64,000 bases of DNA, from assembly GCF_056712565.1 (NCBI RefSeq), contig NZ_CM160072.1. The stretch is one strand, 5' to 3'. Below the pieces are notes generated by a model. The model saw only the letters and a program-made list of their open reading frames with translations, ran no database searches and had not been told where the DNA came from. Every line of letters starts with the position of its first letter. Position 1 is the first letter of the stretch. Shown here one piece after another: positions 3,017 to 63,648 of this stretch. The translations under genes were made by a program, and so were the position numbers.

Positions 3017-3556
3017 TTACCCTCTGAATCCTGGTGGAATTTGGCTGTCAGGTTCACTGACCGTATTCACATCTCGTTTCGGCAGTCCGCCGTTGCTGGC
3101 ACGACCGATTTGCAGGCTGCGCGCCAGTTTTTGTTGCCACTGCACATGGTGAAAGACTTTGCCTTCCGCCTGCCAGTAGGCAATGAATGACGCCAGTTCT
3201 TCGGCGGTCACCGACTCTCTTAGTGCCACGCCCCATAGCGCCGCCAGGCGGATAAAGTCGGCATCGGGTTGCCAGTCTGGGTACATGGCAAATTTCCCCA
3301 TGGGTACGGCAACGGGAGCGGTTTGCGGTTCCTGATAGAGTTGATCGTCCAGAGCGACATCGCTTCCCGGACGCGCCAGCTTTTCTTCCAGCGCCAGCAG
3401 TTCAGCCAGGCGTGCAGGAGTGATGGCATAAAACGCCGGGGCATTGTTAGCAAATACGGCAACCACACCGCCTTCAGCTTTTGCCAGAACGGTTTGGTGA
3501 TCGTGTACCAGGGCGTCAATACCAACGACGTCCGGGGTCAAAACTCTGGAAGACAT
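3017..3556 (-). CDS. dnaT: Primosomal protein DnaT
   Basis: ORF-track frame 3017..3568; internal Met giving [21 protein letters not shown] (179 aa) matches DnaT; 3 bp from dnaC. Confidence 0.9.
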
Positions 3557-3663
3557 ACTGTTTCTCAAATATGGAACGATGAACGAGAAGGGAGATAACT
3601 TTTATAGTAACACACGGAGGAGAGGAGGCTGTCTCTCATCCGCGTGCTTTAAGTGAGGCAATT

Positions 3664-4898
<1,235 letters not shown>

Positions 4899-57986: not shown

Positions 57987-59117
57987 ATGGCTAAGCAAGA
58001 TTATTACGAGATTTTAGGCGTTTCCAAAACAGCGGAAGAGCGTGAAATCAAAAAGGCCTACAAACGCCTGGCCATGAAATACCACCCGGACCGTAACCAG
58101 GGTGACAAAGAGGCCGAGGCGAAATTTAAAGAGATCAAGGAAGCTTATGAAGTTCTGACCGACTCGCAAAAACGTGCGGCATACGATCAGTATGGTCATG
58201 CTGCGTTTGAGCAAGGCGGCATGGGCGGCGGCGGTTTTGGCGGCGGCGCAGACTTCAGCGATATTTTTGGTGACGTTTTCGGCGATATTTTTGGCGGCGG
58301 ACGTGGTCGTCAACGTGCGGCGCGCGGTGCTGATTTACGCTATAACATGGAGCTCACCCTCGAAGAAGCTGTACGTGGCGTGACCAAAGAGATCCGCATT
58401 CCGACTCTGGAAGAGTGTGACGTTTGCCACGGTAGCGGTGCAAAACCAGGTACACAGCCGCAGACCTGTCCGACCTGTCATGGTTCTGGCCAGGTGCAGA
58501 TGCGCCAGGGTTTCTTTGCCGTGCAGCAGACCTGTCCACACTGTCAGGGCCGCGGTACGCTGATCAAAGATCCGTGCAACAAATGTCATGGTCATGGTCG
58601 TGTTGAGCGCAGCAAAACGCTGTCCGTTAAAATCCCGGCAGGGGTGGACACTGGAGACCGCATCCGTCTTGCGGGCGAAGGTGAAGCGGGTGAACACGGC
58701 GCACCGGCAGGCGATCTGTACGTTCAGGTTCAGGTTAAACAGCACCCGATTTTCGAGCGTGAAGGCAACAACCTGTATTGCGAAGTCCCGATCAACTTCG
58801 CTATGGCGGCGCTGGGTGGTGAAATCGAAGTACCGACCCTTGATGGTCGCGTCAAACTGAAAGTGCCTGGCGAAACCCAGACCGGTAAGCTGTTCCGTAT
58901 GCGCGGTAAAGGCGTCAAGTCTGTCCGCGGTGGCGCACAGGGTGATTTGCTATGCCGCGTTGTTGTCGAAACACCGGTAGGTTTGAACGAGAAGCAGAAA
59001 CAGCTGCTGCAAGAGCTGCAAGAAAGCTTTGGTGGCCCAACCGGCGAGCACAACAGCCCGCGTTCAAAGAGCTTCTTTGATGGCGTGAAGAAGTTTTTTG
59101 ACGACCTGACTCGCTAA
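57987..59117 (+). CDS. dnaJ: Hsp40 co-chaperone DnaJ
   Basis: ORF-track frame 57957..59117; ATG at 57987 gives [40 protein letters not shown] (J domain), Gly/Phe-rich linker, four CxxCxGxG zinc-finger repeats; 376 aa. Confidence 0.99.
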
Positions 59118-59194
59118 CCTCCCCAAAAGCCTGCCCGTGGGCAGGCCAGGGTAAAAACCAGGGTGCGTTGAAGATATGCGAGCACCTGTAAAGT

Positions 59195-59214
59195 GGCGGG
59201 GATCACTCCCCGCC
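59195..59214. terminator. Stem-loop between dnaJ and the hokC 3' end
   Basis: ggcggggatcactccccgcc perfect inverted repeat; could terminate dnaJ and/or form the 3' structure of the hok mRNA. Confidence 0.5.
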
Positions 59215-59221
59215 GTTGCTC

Positions 59222-59374
59222 TTACTCGGATTCGTAAGCCGTGAAAACAGCAACCTCCGTCTGGCCAGTTCGGATGTGAACCTCACAGAGGTCTTTTCTC
59301 GTTACCAGCGCCGCCACTACGGCGGTGATACAGATGACGATCAGGGCGACAATCATCGCCTTATGCTGCTTCAT
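59222..59374 (-). CDS. hokC: Type I toxin HokC/Gef (small membrane toxin)
   Basis: Translation MKQHKAMIVALIVICITAVVAALVTRKDLCEVHIRTGQTEVAVFTAYESE (50 aa), Hok/Gef family. Confidence 0.93.
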   Translation of the reverse strand: MKQHKAMIVALIVICITAVVAALVTRKDLCEVHIRTGQTEVAVFTAYESE

Positions 59375-59431
59375 TGCTCTCTTCTCCTTGACCTTACGGT
59401 CAGTAAGAGGCACTCTACATGTGTTCTGCAT
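59222..59431 (-). CDS. mokC: MokC, overlapping reading frame translationally coupled to hokC
   Basis: Same frame, upstream ATG at 59431 giving MQNTCRVPLTDRKVKEKRA-MKQHK... (69 aa). Confidence 0.8.
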   Translation of the reverse strand: MQNTCRVPLTDRKVKEKRAMKQHKAMIVALIVICITAVVAALVTRKDLCEVHIRTGQTEVAVFTAYESE

Positions 59432-59477
59432 ATAGGGGGCCTCGGGTTGATGGTAAAATATCACTCGGGGCTTTTCT
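59423..59477 (+). ncRNA. sokC: SokC antisense RNA (approximate position)
   Basis: Placed only by the expected position relative to the mokC start in hok/sok loci; not verified by promoter or structure. Confidence 0.4.
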
Positions 59478-59985
59478 CTATCTGCCGTTCAGCTAATGCC
59501 TGAGACAGACAGCCTCAAGCACCCGCCGCTATTATATCGCTCTCTTTAACCCATTCTGTTTTATCGATTCTAATCCTGAAGACGCCTCGCATTTTTGCGT
59601 AATCAATCTTTAGTACATTGTTTATTTTAACTCTTATGTGCGTTTTCATTTACAAAAGTTGAGATTATGAACAAGAGGTTTAAGTTATGCCTGAATGGTG
59701 AGTTATTACTGGAGAAAGTAATAGAAGATACAAAATATTCTTGTACAGAATTGAATTTTCTTTTTGTGAGGAAAAATGTTTATAAATCAATGAGTGATAT
59801 TTAAAATCGACACACTTTTTGAAACACGATACCTCCACACCCGGGGGTAAAAGTAATCTGCGATCTCCATCACGCTTTGCCATTCACCTTTAAATATACT
59901 TTCTGAGTCGTTCTTAATCAAAATGAATTATCTGATGTATTGATTTCTATGGAACCATAAAAAAAATGAATGGAGAGCATATTAT

Positions 59986-60747
59986 ATGTCTGCCAAAAGA
60001 CGGCTTCTTATTGCGTGTGCCCTGACAACGATTTTCTATCACCTTCCTGCATATTCTTCATTAGAATATAAAGGTTCCTTTGGCTCAATAAATGCAGGTT
60101 ATGCTGACTGGAATAGTGGCTTCATTAACACTCATCGTGGTGAAGTATGGAAAGTGACTGCAGACTTTGGTGTGAATTTTAAAGAAGCCGAGTTTTACTC
60201 ATTTTATGAAAGCAATGTGCTTAACCATGCCGTAGCGGGGCGTAATCATACCGTTTCTGCTATGACACATGTCAGACTCTTTGACTCCAATATGACTTTC
60301 TTTGGCAAGATCTATGGTCAATGGGATAACTCATGGGGTGACGATCTTGATATGTTTTATGGTTTGGGCTACCTCGGCTGGAATGGTTCATGGGGGTTTT
60401 TTAAACCGTATATTGGATTACATAATCAATCTGGAGACTACGTCTCAGCCAAATATGGACAAACAAATGGCTGGAATGGTTATGTTGTTGGCTGGACAGC
60501 AGTATTACCTTTTACGTTATTTGACGAAAAATTTGTTTTATCTAACTGGAATGAAATAGAACTGGACAGAAATGATGCCTATGCGGAACAACAATTTGGT
60601 CGGAATGGGCTAAATGGCGGTTTAACAGTAGCCTGGAAGTTCTATCCTCGCTGGAAAGCCAGTGTGACGTGGCGTTATTTCGATAATAAGTTGGGCTACG
60701 ATGGTTTTGGCGATCAAATGATTTATATGCTTGGTTATGATTTCTAA
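59986..60747 (+). CDS. Tsx/OmpK-family outer-membrane channel
   Basis: 253-aa ORF; signal peptide MSAKRRLLIACALTTIFYHLPAYS; aromatic/Gly-rich beta-strand pattern (WNGSWGFFKPYIG; WNGYVVGWTAV); C-terminal ...MLGYDF resembling Tsx ...GYNF; RBS tggagag; AT-rich. Confidence 0.7.
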   Translation: MSAKRRLLIACALTTIFYHLPAYSSLEYKGSFGSINAGYADWNSGFINTHRGEVWKVTADFGVNFKEAEFYSFYESNVLNHAVAGRNHTVSAMTHVRLFDSNMTFFGKIYGQWDNSWGDDLDMFYGLGYLGWNGSWGFFKPYIGLHNQSGDYVSAKYGQTNGWNGYVVGWTAVLPFTLFDEKFVLSNWNEIELDRNDAYAEQQFGRNGLNGGLTVAWKFYPRWKASVTWRYFDNKLGYDGFGDQMIYMLGYDF

Positions 60748-60766
60748 TTTTCATCAGGGAATAATT

Positions 60767-62260
60767 ATGCAGAAAACATTAATGGCCAGTTTGATCGGCC
60801 TTGCAGTTTGCACAGGGAATGCTTTTAATCCAGTCGTAGCTGCCGAGACTAAACAACCCAATTTAGTCATCATTATGGCGGATGATTTAGGCTATGGTGA
60901 TTTAGCAACATATGGACATCAGATCGTTAAAACACCCAATATTGACAGGCTTGCCCAGGAGGGCGTCAAATTTACTGACTACTATGCACCAGCTCCCTTA
61001 AGTTCTCCTTCGCGGGCGGGGTTATTAACGGGGCGGATGCCATTTCGTACCGGCATACGTTCATGGATCCCAACGGGAAAAGATGTGGCATTAGGGCGTA
61101 ATGAACTCACGATTGCTAATCTACTCAAAGCGCAAGGGTATGACACGGCCATGATGGGTAAGCTGCATCTGAATGCAGGCGGCGATCGCACCGATCAGCC
61201 GCAGGCAAAAGATATGGGCTTTGATTACTCACTGGTTAATACGGCGGGTTTTGTTACCGACGCCACGCTGGATAACGCTAAAGAACGCCCGCGTTATGGC
61301 ATGGTTTACCCGACAGGCTGGCTACGTAACGGGCAACCCACTCCACGAGCCGATAAAATGAGCGGTGAGTATGTCAGTTCGGAAGTCGTCAACTGGCTGG
61401 ATAACAAAAAGGACAGCAAGCCTTTCTTCCTCTATGTTGCTTTTACCGAAGTGCATAGCCCCCTGGCTTCGCCCAAAAAATACCTCGACATGTACTCACA
61501 ATATATGAGCGCGTATCAGAAGCAGCATCCTGATTTATTTTATGGCGACTGGGCAGACAAACCCTGGCGTGGTGTGGGGGAATATTATGCCAATATCAGC
61601 TATCTGGATGCACAGGTTGGAAAAGTGCTGGATAAAATCAAAGCGATGGGTGAAGAAGATAACACAATCGTTATTTTTACCAGTGATAACGGTCCGGTAA
61701 CGCGTGAAGCGCGCAAAGTGTATGAGCTGAATTTGGCAGGGGAAACGGATGGATTACGCGGTCGCAAGGATAACCTTTGGGAAGGCGGAATTCGTGTTCC
61801 AGCCATTATTAAATATGGTAAACATCTACCACAGGGAATGGTTTCAGATACACCCGTTTATGGTCTGGACTGGATGCCTACTTTAGCGAAAATGATGAAC
61901 TTCAAATTACCTACAGACCGTACTTTCGATGGTGAATCGCTGGTTCCTGTTCTTGAGCAAAAAGCATTGAAACGCGAAAAGCCATTAATTTTCGGGATTG
62001 ATATGCCATTCCAGGATGATCCAACCGATGAATGGGCGATCCGTGATGGTGACTGGAAGATGATTATCGATCGCAATAATAAACCGAAATATCTCTACAA
62101 TCTGAAATCTGATCGTTATGAAACACTTAATCTGATCGGTAAAAAACCAGATATTGAAAAACAGATGTATGGTAAGTTTTTAAAATATAAAACTGATATT
62201 GATAATGATTCTCTAATGAAAGCCAGAGGTGATAAACCAGAAGCGGTGACCTGGGGCTAA
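60767..62260 (+). CDS. Periplasmic sulfatase, Ser-type (S-x-P-S-R)
   Basis: ORF-track frame 60731..62260; ATG at 60767 with RBS aggga; signal peptide MQKTLMASLIGLAVCTGNAFNPVVAAE; N-terminal IIMADDLGYGD and signature APAPLSSPSRAGLLTGR; 19 bp after the channel gene. Confidence 0.85.
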   Translation: MQKTLMASLIGLAVCTGNAFNPVVAAETKQPNLVIIMADDLGYGDLATYGHQIVKTPNIDRLAQEGVKFTDYYAPAPLSSPSRAGLLTGRMPFRTGIRSWIPTGKDVALGRNELTIANLLKAQGYDTAMMGKLHLNAGGDRTDQPQAKDMGFDYSLVNTAGFVTDATLDNAKERPRYGMVYPTGWLRNGQPTPRADKMSGEYVSSEVVNWLDNKKDSKPFFLYVAFTEVHSPLASPKKYLDMYSQYMSAYQKQHPDLFYGDWADKPWRGVGEYYANISYLDAQVGKVLDKIKAMGEEDNTIVIFTSDNGPVTREARKVYELNLAGETDGLRGRKDNLWEGGIRVPAIIKYGKHLPQGMVSDTPVYGLDWMPTLAKMMNFKLPTDRTFDGESLVPVLEQKALKREKPLIFGIDMPFQDDPTDEWAIRDGDWKMIIDRNNKPKYLYNLKSDRYETLNLIGKKPDIEKQMYGKFLKYKTDIDNDSLMKARGDKPEAVTWG

Positions 62261-62308
62261 CCTGATAATCATAATAAATGTAATGTATGCCATTTAGGGC
62301 TATGCCCG

Positions 62309-62346
62309 CCTGATTCAGTGCTACGCATTGAATCAGGTTCTTTTCG
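62309..62346 (+). terminator. Rho-independent terminator after the sulfatase gene
   Basis: cctgattcagtg-ctacgc-attgaatcagg hairpin followed by ttcttttcg. Confidence 0.65.
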
Positions 62347-62388
62347 CGTTGAACAATATCAAGATACGGCTATTCGCAGGGAGTGGAT

Positions 62389-63648
62389 ATGTTTACCAAC
62401 GTAAATGTTGATTGTTGCAAAACACCAGGATGTAAAAACCTGGGGTTGCTGAATAGCCAGGATTATGTCGCACAGGGTAAAAATATTTTATGCCGTGAAT
62501 GTGGTTACTTGTTTCCAGTGATATCTGAACAGTCGCTTAATATTTATCGTAATATTGTGAATCACTCCTGGAGAGGTTTGATTTGCCAATGTTCAACTTG
62601 CGGAGGCACGTCCCTCAAAAAATATGGATATTCTGCACAAGGCCAGAGAAGAATGTATTGCCATCATTGTGAGAAAACATTTATCACTCTGGAACATGTA
62701 ATTACCACACCACGAGGAGCCCTGTTAGCATTGATGATTGAGCAAGGGGAGGCACTTGCGGATATCAGAAAGTCATTACTTCTTAACAGCACTGGACTTA
62801 GCCGTGAACTGTTAAAATTAGCGCGTGAAGCAAACTATAAAGAAAGTCGACAGTGTTTCCCAGCTTCTGATATTACCCTGAGTACCCGCGCTTTTCGCGT
62901 CAAGTATAATGGTAGCAATAACTCTCTTTATGCTCTTGTTACCGCAGAAGAACAAAGCGGCAGGGTGGTTGCCATCTCAACCAATTACTCCCCATCTGCC
63001 GTAGAGCAACATTATCAATACACATCGAACTATGAAGAGCGTATGTCTCCAGGGACGCTGGCACATCATGTCCAGCGCAAAGAGTTACTTACTATGCGGC
63101 GGGATACCTTGTTTGATATTGATTACGGCCCGGCAGTTTTACATCAAAACGATCCGGGAATGTTGGTAAAACCGGTTCTTCCGGCATATCGTCATTTTGA
63201 ACTGGTCAGAATACTGACCGATGAGCATTCCAACAACGTTCAGCATTACCTTGATCACGAATGCTTTATATTGGGCGGCTGCCTGATGGCTAATTTGCAG
63301 CATATTCATCAAGGTCGCTGCCATATTTCCTTTGTCAAAGAGCGCGGTGTGGCACCCGCCACCATTGATTTTCCACCGCGATTATTCCTTAGTGGTGGGG
63401 TACGAAATAATGTCTGGCGTGCATTTTCTAACCGCAATTATTCAATGGCTGTATGCAATCTCACTGGCAGTAAGAAAGTCCGCGAGATGCGGCATGCAAC
63501 ATTGAACAGTGCGACGCGTTTTATCCACTTTGTGGAGAACCATCCTTTCCTTATATCATTGAACCGAATGTCTCCTGCGAATGTCGTTTCTACATTAGAT
63601 ATCCTCAAACATCTGTGGAATAAAAAACTAGAGCATGGAACAATTTAA
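62389..63648 (+). CDS. Hypothetical cysteine-rich protein with two N-terminal transposase-type zinc ribbons
   Basis: ORF-track frame 62383..63648; ATG at 62389 preceded by gcagggag RBS; 419 aa; ribbon 1 CCKTPGC-x19-CREC, ribbon 2 CQCSTCGG-x17-CHHCEKTF (G-x-Q-R-x-x-C-x-x-C-x-K-T-F), followed by about 300 aa with no motif I can assign. Confidence 0.6.
   Translation: MFTNVNVDCCKTPGCKNLGLLNSQDYVAQGKNILCRECGYLFPVISEQSLNIYRNIVNHSWRGLICQCSTCGGTSLKKYGYSAQGQRRMYCHHCEKTFITLEHVITTPRGALLALMIEQGEALADIRKSLLLNSTGLSRELLKLAREANYKESRQCFPASDITLSTRAFRVKYNGSNNSLYALVTAEEQSGRVVAISTNYSPSAVEQHYQYTSNYEERMSPGTLAHHVQRKELLTMRRDTLFDIDYGPAVLHQNDPGMLVKPVLPAYRHFELVRILTDEHSNNVQHYLDHECFILGGCLMANLQHIHQGRCHISFVKERGVAPATIDFPPRLFLSGGVRNNVWRAFSNRNYSMAVCNLTGSKKVREMRHATLNSATRFIHFVENHPFLISLNRMSPANVVSTLDILKHLWNKKLEHGTI

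Follow-up and report, generated by a model that had tools for sequence, protein, structure and literature searches.

The region next to dnaJ in the 64,000-nucleotide stretch of DNA analyzed here (the window) very probably represents a wild-type, IS186-free chromosomal hokC/mokC/sokC type I toxin-antitoxin locus of a B2/ST95-like Escherichia coli, in a known and common configuration; it is probably phenotypically quiet. An IS186-free hokC has already been described (in 1999) and is the majority state of the species; because it occurs in about 70% of sequenced E. coli genomes and was described so long ago, the locus is real but ordinary. Its coding frames are open, all of its hok-type regulatory elements are present in the predicted structures, and the site that is occupied by IS186 in K-12 is empty.

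The dnaJ gene (57987 to 59117, plus strand, 376 amino acids), placed from the list of open reading frames and from the UTI89 annotation mapped to the window, ends with the stop codon TAA at 59115-59117 and is convergent with hokC (59374 to 59222, minus strand), whose stop codon lies at 59222-59224. The spacer between them, 59118-59221, measures 104 nt, so that the first-pass annotation was right about a short spacer and slightly off in its figure of 105 bp from stop to stop. hokC encodes a 50-amino-acid membrane toxin of the Hok/Gef family, is identical in DNA sequence to K-12 hokC, and matches the full Pfam model HOK_GEF (PF01848, model positions 1 to 42) with 85.5 bits, the cutoff being 22. 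The mokC frame (59431 to 59222, minus strand, ATG at 59431) encodes 69 amino acids as an in-frame N-terminal extension of hokC, ends at the hokC stop codon, corresponds to K-12 mokC (b0018), and matches the same model with 84.2 bits against the same cutoff. Both frames are thus intact and score far above the Pfam threshold, in agreement with the first reading of the sequence. The HokC protein is the same in 8 of 10 compared genomes, an O157:H7 strain and strain 1403KP being the two that deviate. The interval 59118-59480, to which the locus had at first been assigned, covers the spacer, hokC, mokC, and nearly the whole of sokC; it leaves out the last 44 nt of the hokC leader (to 59524) and the hokC promoter (-10 at 59531-59536), and the locus reaches to about 59536. 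The RefSeq label of the 153-nt hokC coding sequence is "mokC."

The Tyr47 codon of hokC (UAC, 59234-59236, minus strand) lies within UUACGAA, a predicted motif for TadA-type A-to-I editing (Tyr to Cys), and the surrounding sequence resembles the tRNA-Arg anticodon loop recognized by TadA. Editing of hok-family mRNAs, including that of hokC, at this cysteine position (Tyr to Cys) is mentioned in a recent preprint (bioRxiv 10.1101/2025.08.07.668861).

Alignment with K-12 MG1655 confirmed the claim that IS186 separates dnaJ from hokC in that strain and is missing here. In K-12 this place is taken by IS186A, an element of 1,339 bp bounded by 23-bp inverted repeats; a copy of the 10-bp duplication GGATCACTCC adjoins it at either end and corresponds to window positions 59200-59209, the loop and the 3' arm of a hairpin at 59195-59214. 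Removal of IS186 and of one copy of the 10-mer from the K-12 sequence yields the window sequence at the site, and no IS186 end sequence was found between dnaJ and hokC in the window. The empty site, GGGGATCACTCCCC at 59198-59211, is the sole GGGG(N6/N7)CCCC target within the 64-kb window; this is the target consensus of IS186 (SaiSree et al. 2001, as given in PMC6925257), and because the hairpin reads GGGG-N6-CCCC it is also a preferred landing site of the element. In K-12, IS186 separates the body of the hokC mRNA from two downstream elements, the fold-back inhibition element fbi (59161-59173) and the terminator (59129-59146). PMC3562002, after Pedersen and Gerdes 1999, gives the same account, a presumed disruption of fbi and of mRNA processing by the K-12 insertion.

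The site has been struck more than once. Junction probes detected the element in about 816 genomes oriented as in K-12 and in about 940 oriented the other way; together with the 3,814 intact junctions described below, these counts exceed the 5,426 genomes by about 144. Strain 4/2-1 carries a full 1,339-bp IS186 in inverted orientation with the same duplication, GGATCACTCC, on both sides. Since both orientations occur with identical duplications, the site was hit at least twice independently. The assignment of IS orientation excludes BL21(RP), whose left flank is rearranged and carries a partial restriction-subunit gene. In K-12 hokE and in a hok locus on an IncY plasmid, too, IS186 was found where the corresponding hairpin lies, and other plasmids contain the same IS186 junction signature. 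The occurrence of the element at hokC in both orientations, at hokE, and at the IncY hok locus therefore marks the hok 3' untranslated region (UTR) hairpin as a recurrent IS186 landing site. Strain 4/2-1 also has an IS150 in the sokC terminator and hokC leader (about 3540-3920 of its locus), so the hokC locus can carry two different IS elements at once. The lon promoter, an IS186 hot spot (SaiSree et al. 2001, as cited in PMC6925257), shares the GGGG(N6/N7)CCCC target; the hokC target differs from it in that it is no promoter but a conserved structural element in the mRNA of a toxin, and in being unoccupied in the window. In ATCC 11775, a type strain whose sequence in this region equals that of the window, no other match to the left end of IS186 was found. 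The lineage of the window may simply be without IS186.

Over the 1,051 nt that surround the locus, the window shows 100% identity to UTI89, S88, APEC O1, IHE3034, and ATCC 11775. Many B2 extraintestinal pathogenic strains share these 1,051 nt, in which dnaJ and, next to it, a type I toxin gene (mokC) are annotated. An uninterrupted dnaJ-hokC junction was found in 3,814 of 5,426 complete E. coli genomes (about 70%), with agreement between a 581-nt and a 120-nt probe, and the remaining genomes (roughly 30%) break at the 59195-59214 hairpin. Six differences from K-12 were found in the locus (at 59148, 59158, 59159, 59427, 59437, and 59556), none of them in the hokC coding sequence, and 59201-59597 is 99.2% identical to K-12. 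The differences at 59148 and 59158-59159 cluster between fbi and the terminator, where the window has CCCUGGUUUUUACCCUGG and K-12 has CCCUAUUUUUACCCAGG; B2-type genomes have the window form at these positions, and 3' processing would remove the segment.

On the far side of the locus, a low-GC islet of about 4 kb (59598-63638, 32 to 44% GC versus about 52 to 55% for dnaK-dnaJ and for the hokC locus) stands in place of 116 bp of K-12 sequence between sokC and nhaA. It contains genes for a Tsx-like porin (59986-60747), a sulfatase (60767-62260), and a Cys-rich protein of 421 amino acids (62383-63648), which gave no match in Pfam. The left boundary of the islet is common to only 328 of the 5,426 genomes.

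The spacer RNA of 104 nt is predicted to fold more stably than 200 of 200 shuffled sequences (z = -3.06), and it contains two perfect 8-bp hairpins. The one nearer to hokC (59195-59214, minus strand, mRNA nt 311-330), which the first-pass annotation had noticed as a perfect stem-loop between dnaJ and hokC, is formed by the inverted repeat GGCGGGGA/TCCCCGCC (59195-59202 and 59207-59214), with 8 bp that are 100% complementary and a 4-nt loop. It is a conserved GC hairpin in the hokC 3' UTR that holds the IS186 target GGGG-N6-CCCC, and homologous GC hairpins occur in plasmid hok loci and in hokE. The other (59129-59146, minus strand) is a perfect repeat, GCCUGCCC-AC-GGGCAGGC, followed by UUUU and contained in the minimum free energy (MFE) structure; it is a putative terminator. 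It is predicted to form the 3' end of the full-length hokC mRNA, at about 59122-59125, and probably serves dnaJ as well, terminating transcription from both directions. The order of elements along the hokC RNA is thus stop codon, GC hairpin, spacer, fbi, and terminator hairpin with UUUU. A match to the Rfam family rpsL_pseudo at 59128-59254 reached 19.5 bits (E = 0.45), where the gathering score is 70, and was rejected as a chance match that picks up the two GC hairpins.

Upstream of the toxin gene, the hokC mRNA leader (59372-59524, minus strand, up to the hokC AUG) was recognized by Rfam RF01794 over the full model length with 116.9 bits, the gathering score being 59. The family bears the name "sok antitoxin," although its match lies on the hokC-sense strand. 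Because the match has this strand and ends at the hokC AUG, RF01794 models the hok mRNA leader and not the antisense RNA; the match also spans the region complementary to sokC. From the first position of RF01794 and from a perfect TATAAT at 59531-59536 (minus strand), we infer that the mRNA begins at about 59524. This candidate -10 element, recognized by eye, lies 7 nt upstream of the deduced 5' end and has no good -35 partner. A consensus scan for promoters and terminators called no hokC promoter, no sokC promoter, and neither of the two spacer hairpins on either strand; for the hokC promoter we attribute this to the poor -35.

Pairing between the two ends of the transcript, tac at the 5' end and fbi near the 3' end, is a defining trait of hok-family mRNAs. 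Here the candidate tac element is GGGUGCUUGAGG (59513-59524, minus strand), at the deduced 5' end, and fbi is CUUCAACGCACCC (59161-59173, minus strand), which is predicted to pair with it. When the 403-nt RNA from 59524 to 59122 was folded, both in its MFE structure and by the partition function, nt 1-12 paired with nt 352-364, each pair with a probability between 0.94 and 1.0, and the mokC start region paired with the stretch of the 3' UTR that directly precedes fbi. The same 5'-3' closure recurred in three plasmid homologues that were folded independently, in the case of pHCM1 through different sequences (GGUGCUG with UGGCACC). RNAs ending before or within fbi are predicted to refold: AAGCCCC becomes the local partner of the 5' end, and nt 90-110 fold into a hairpin across the mokC AUG. 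On the evidence of these models, the hok-type elements are all present: leader, sokC region, tac-fbi pairing, 3' UTR hairpin, and terminator.

The putative antisense RNA sokC (59 nt, 59423 to 59481, plus strand) was mapped from K-12 b4413 and is complementary to nt 44-102 of the hokC mRNA; its region contains two single-nucleotide differences from K-12. SokC is predicted to consist of an unpaired 5' tail and a hairpin that acts as its terminator. A candidate promoter for it was recognized by eye (-35 TTGACC at 59388-59393, -10 CACTCT at 59411-59416), of which the -10 is a poor match to the consensus. The predicted Sok-target hairpin (59415-59435, minus strand, mRNA nt 90-110) overlaps the mokC AUG and is suggested by the folds of truncated and isolated RNA and by the Rfam alignment. 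Its loop (59422-59428) bears, at one position, a change in a regulatory element of the kind that the first-pass annotation had named as speaking against its reading: the loop is CAGAACA here, whereas K-12 has CUGAACA, pHCM1 has CUAGUCA, and the Rfam consensus is cCUaaACAA. The YUNR U-turn motif is thereby deprived of its U (position 59427, mRNA nt 98), and the same base sets codon 2 of mokC, which is Gln here and Leu in K-12.

In plasmid R1 the YUNR motif is reported to be decisive for rapid Sok binding (PMC6562991). With the target loop lacking the U of this motif, the kinetics of SokC pairing may deviate from that paradigm. However, YUNR is also missing in two of four other hok-family target loops examined, those of K-12 hokE and of one plasmid homologue, and it is therefore no universal requirement. 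The window allele around 59427 was found in 1,898 of 5,374 genomes (about 35%), a count made with a 40-nt probe so as to avoid confounding by a second polymorphism at 59396, and in 5 of 10 aligned genomes. A at mRNA nt 98 (A98) is a common polymorphism and not a private lesion.

By homology with R1 hok/sok, the likely mechanism of the locus is as follows, with the transcript ends, both promoters, mRNA processing, and SokC control being putative. A weak promoter (-10 TATAAT) would yield an mRNA of about 400 nt, running from 59524 to about 59122. In the full-length mRNA, tac would pair with fbi while the 3' UTR covers the mokC start, and this end-paired form would be neither translated nor bound by the antisense RNA. 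Slow trimming from the 3' end would remove the terminator and fbi, whereupon the 5' end of the trimmed mRNA would refold and expose the target hairpin at the mokC start. SokC would then pair at the target and block mokC and, through coupling, the translation of hokC. Loss of SokC would permit synthesis of HokC, and the inner membrane would be damaged. IS186 in the hairpin, as in K-12 and roughly 30% of E. coli, would strip fbi and the terminator from the mRNA.

Three other readings of the region were weighed against a wild-type but quiet locus. If the stem-loop at 59195-59214 were a mere terminator of dnaJ or hokC with no regulatory role in hokC, its intactness would be uninformative about the toxin. 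The perfect, GC-rich stem between convergent genes and the moderately T-rich plus strand that follows it are what such a terminator might look like. However, the terminator scan was silent at this hairpin on both strands, the hokC strand past it reads ACUUUACAGG with no run of U, and hairpins stand at the same position in the plasmid hok homologues and in hokE. Moreover, fbi lies 22-53 nt past the hairpin, so that a functional mRNA must read through it, and K-12 dnaJ functions despite the destruction of the hairpin. We regard a role as terminator only as highly improbable. Because the mRNA must read through to reach fbi, the structure is not a simple intergenic terminator; a hairpin within the 3' UTR that is also an IS186 target is a more fitting description of it than a separate stem-loop between genes.

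The remaining two readings concern activity, on which the first-pass annotation had proposed that the locus may be functional because IS186 is absent. The regulatory elements are indeed present, but the step from the absence of the IS to function is not supported: the IS-free hokC of strain ECOR24 showed neither post-segregational killing nor activation by rifampicin (Pedersen and Gerdes 1999, as related in bioRxiv 10.1101/2025.08.07.668861). That the window holds a full killer of the hok/sok type, with an mRNA activated by 3' processing and with HokC killing upon SokC decay, accords with the complete set of hok-family elements, the intact toxin gene, and the toxicity of the HokC coding sequence on overexpression, which the same preprint reports. 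Set against the negative ECOR24 results and a target loop without the YUNR U, this reading seems to us quite improbable. Alternatively, the locus could be an IS-free but decaying remnant in which point changes have already uncoupled regulation and the open frames reflect only slow decay. The loop sequence, which departs from both K-12 and the Rfam consensus, the weak -10 of SokC, the reported importance of YUNR in R1 (PMC6562991), and the suggestion that chromosomal hok loci are inactive all point in this direction. Arguing the other way are the identity of the hokC DNA between a B2 strain and K-12, the constancy of the HokC protein in 8 of 10 genomes, the perfection of the tac-fbi pairing and of both hairpins, the high frequency of the A98 allele, and the absence of YUNR from half of the other loops examined; we consider decay unlikely. 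For the wild-type, quiet locus that we prefer, the published tests on ECOR24, another IS-free allele, suggest that killing after transcription arrest or plasmid loss is probably absent here too. Given the inactivity of that allele in the killing and rifampicin tests, the absence of IS186 is necessary but evidently insufficient for activity.

The closest described relative of the locus is that of ECOR24, the strain from which hokC was characterized (Pedersen and Gerdes 1999, Mol Microbiol 32:1090, as cited in PMC3562002 and bioRxiv 10.1101/2025.08.07.668861). The ECOR24 hokC/sokC locus lies at the same chromosomal place beside dnaJ, is free of IS186, and possesses mok, sok, fbi, and the 3' processing elements, although the background of ECOR24 differs from the B2/ST95-like strain of the window. 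The K-12 gef/sof locus is hokC/sokC with IS186A and has the same hokC coding sequence and the same sokC annotation; in K-12 the 3' UTR hairpin is split by IS186 and mRNA nt 98 is U, which gives a YUNR loop, whereas the window has no IS186 and A at nt 98. With the hok/sok locus of R1 and the loci of pHCM1, an IncY plasmid, and an IncHI1B phage-plasmid-like element, hokC shares a Hok/Gef toxin and an overlapping upstream mok. Like R1 and the plasmid hok/sok loci, it also has a predicted antisense RNA directed at the start of mok, predicted pairing of the two mRNA ends, a GC hairpin past the stop codon, and a putative terminator at the very end. The closest plasmid loci are about 74% identical in DNA sequence over mRNA nt 1-365. 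In contrast to R1 hok/sok, hokC is chromosomal, has mokC in frame with hokC, and in this allele has a target loop without YUNR; also unlike R1 hok/sok, the native hokC locus has no reported killing phenotype.

The value of the locus as a discovery is small, as an IS-free hokC is the published wild type and the majority state in E. coli. Two points could be of interest to specialists: the repeated insertion of IS186, facing either way, into one conserved hairpin that several hok-family mRNAs have in common, and the frequent U-turn polymorphism, found in about 35% of genomes, in the SokC target loop. Taken together, these would allow a bolder proposal, which we think very unlikely: the GGGG-N6-CCCC hairpin of the hok 3' UTR would act as a serial IS186 trap that disarms toxins, and, in IS186-free B2/ExPEC lineages, the intact allele without the U-turn U would be more weakly repressed and conditionally active. 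The first part of this proposal draws on the insertions in hokC in both orientations, in hokE, and in the hok loci of phage-plasmids. If conditional activity were true, the B2/ExPEC allele might act, for example, in stress, persistence, or phage defense, unlike the ECOR24 allele tested in 1999. For the interpretation of hokC in E. coli at large, the locus carries a caution: K-12 is the exception at hokC, and the absence of an IS element is not equivalent to an active toxin system.
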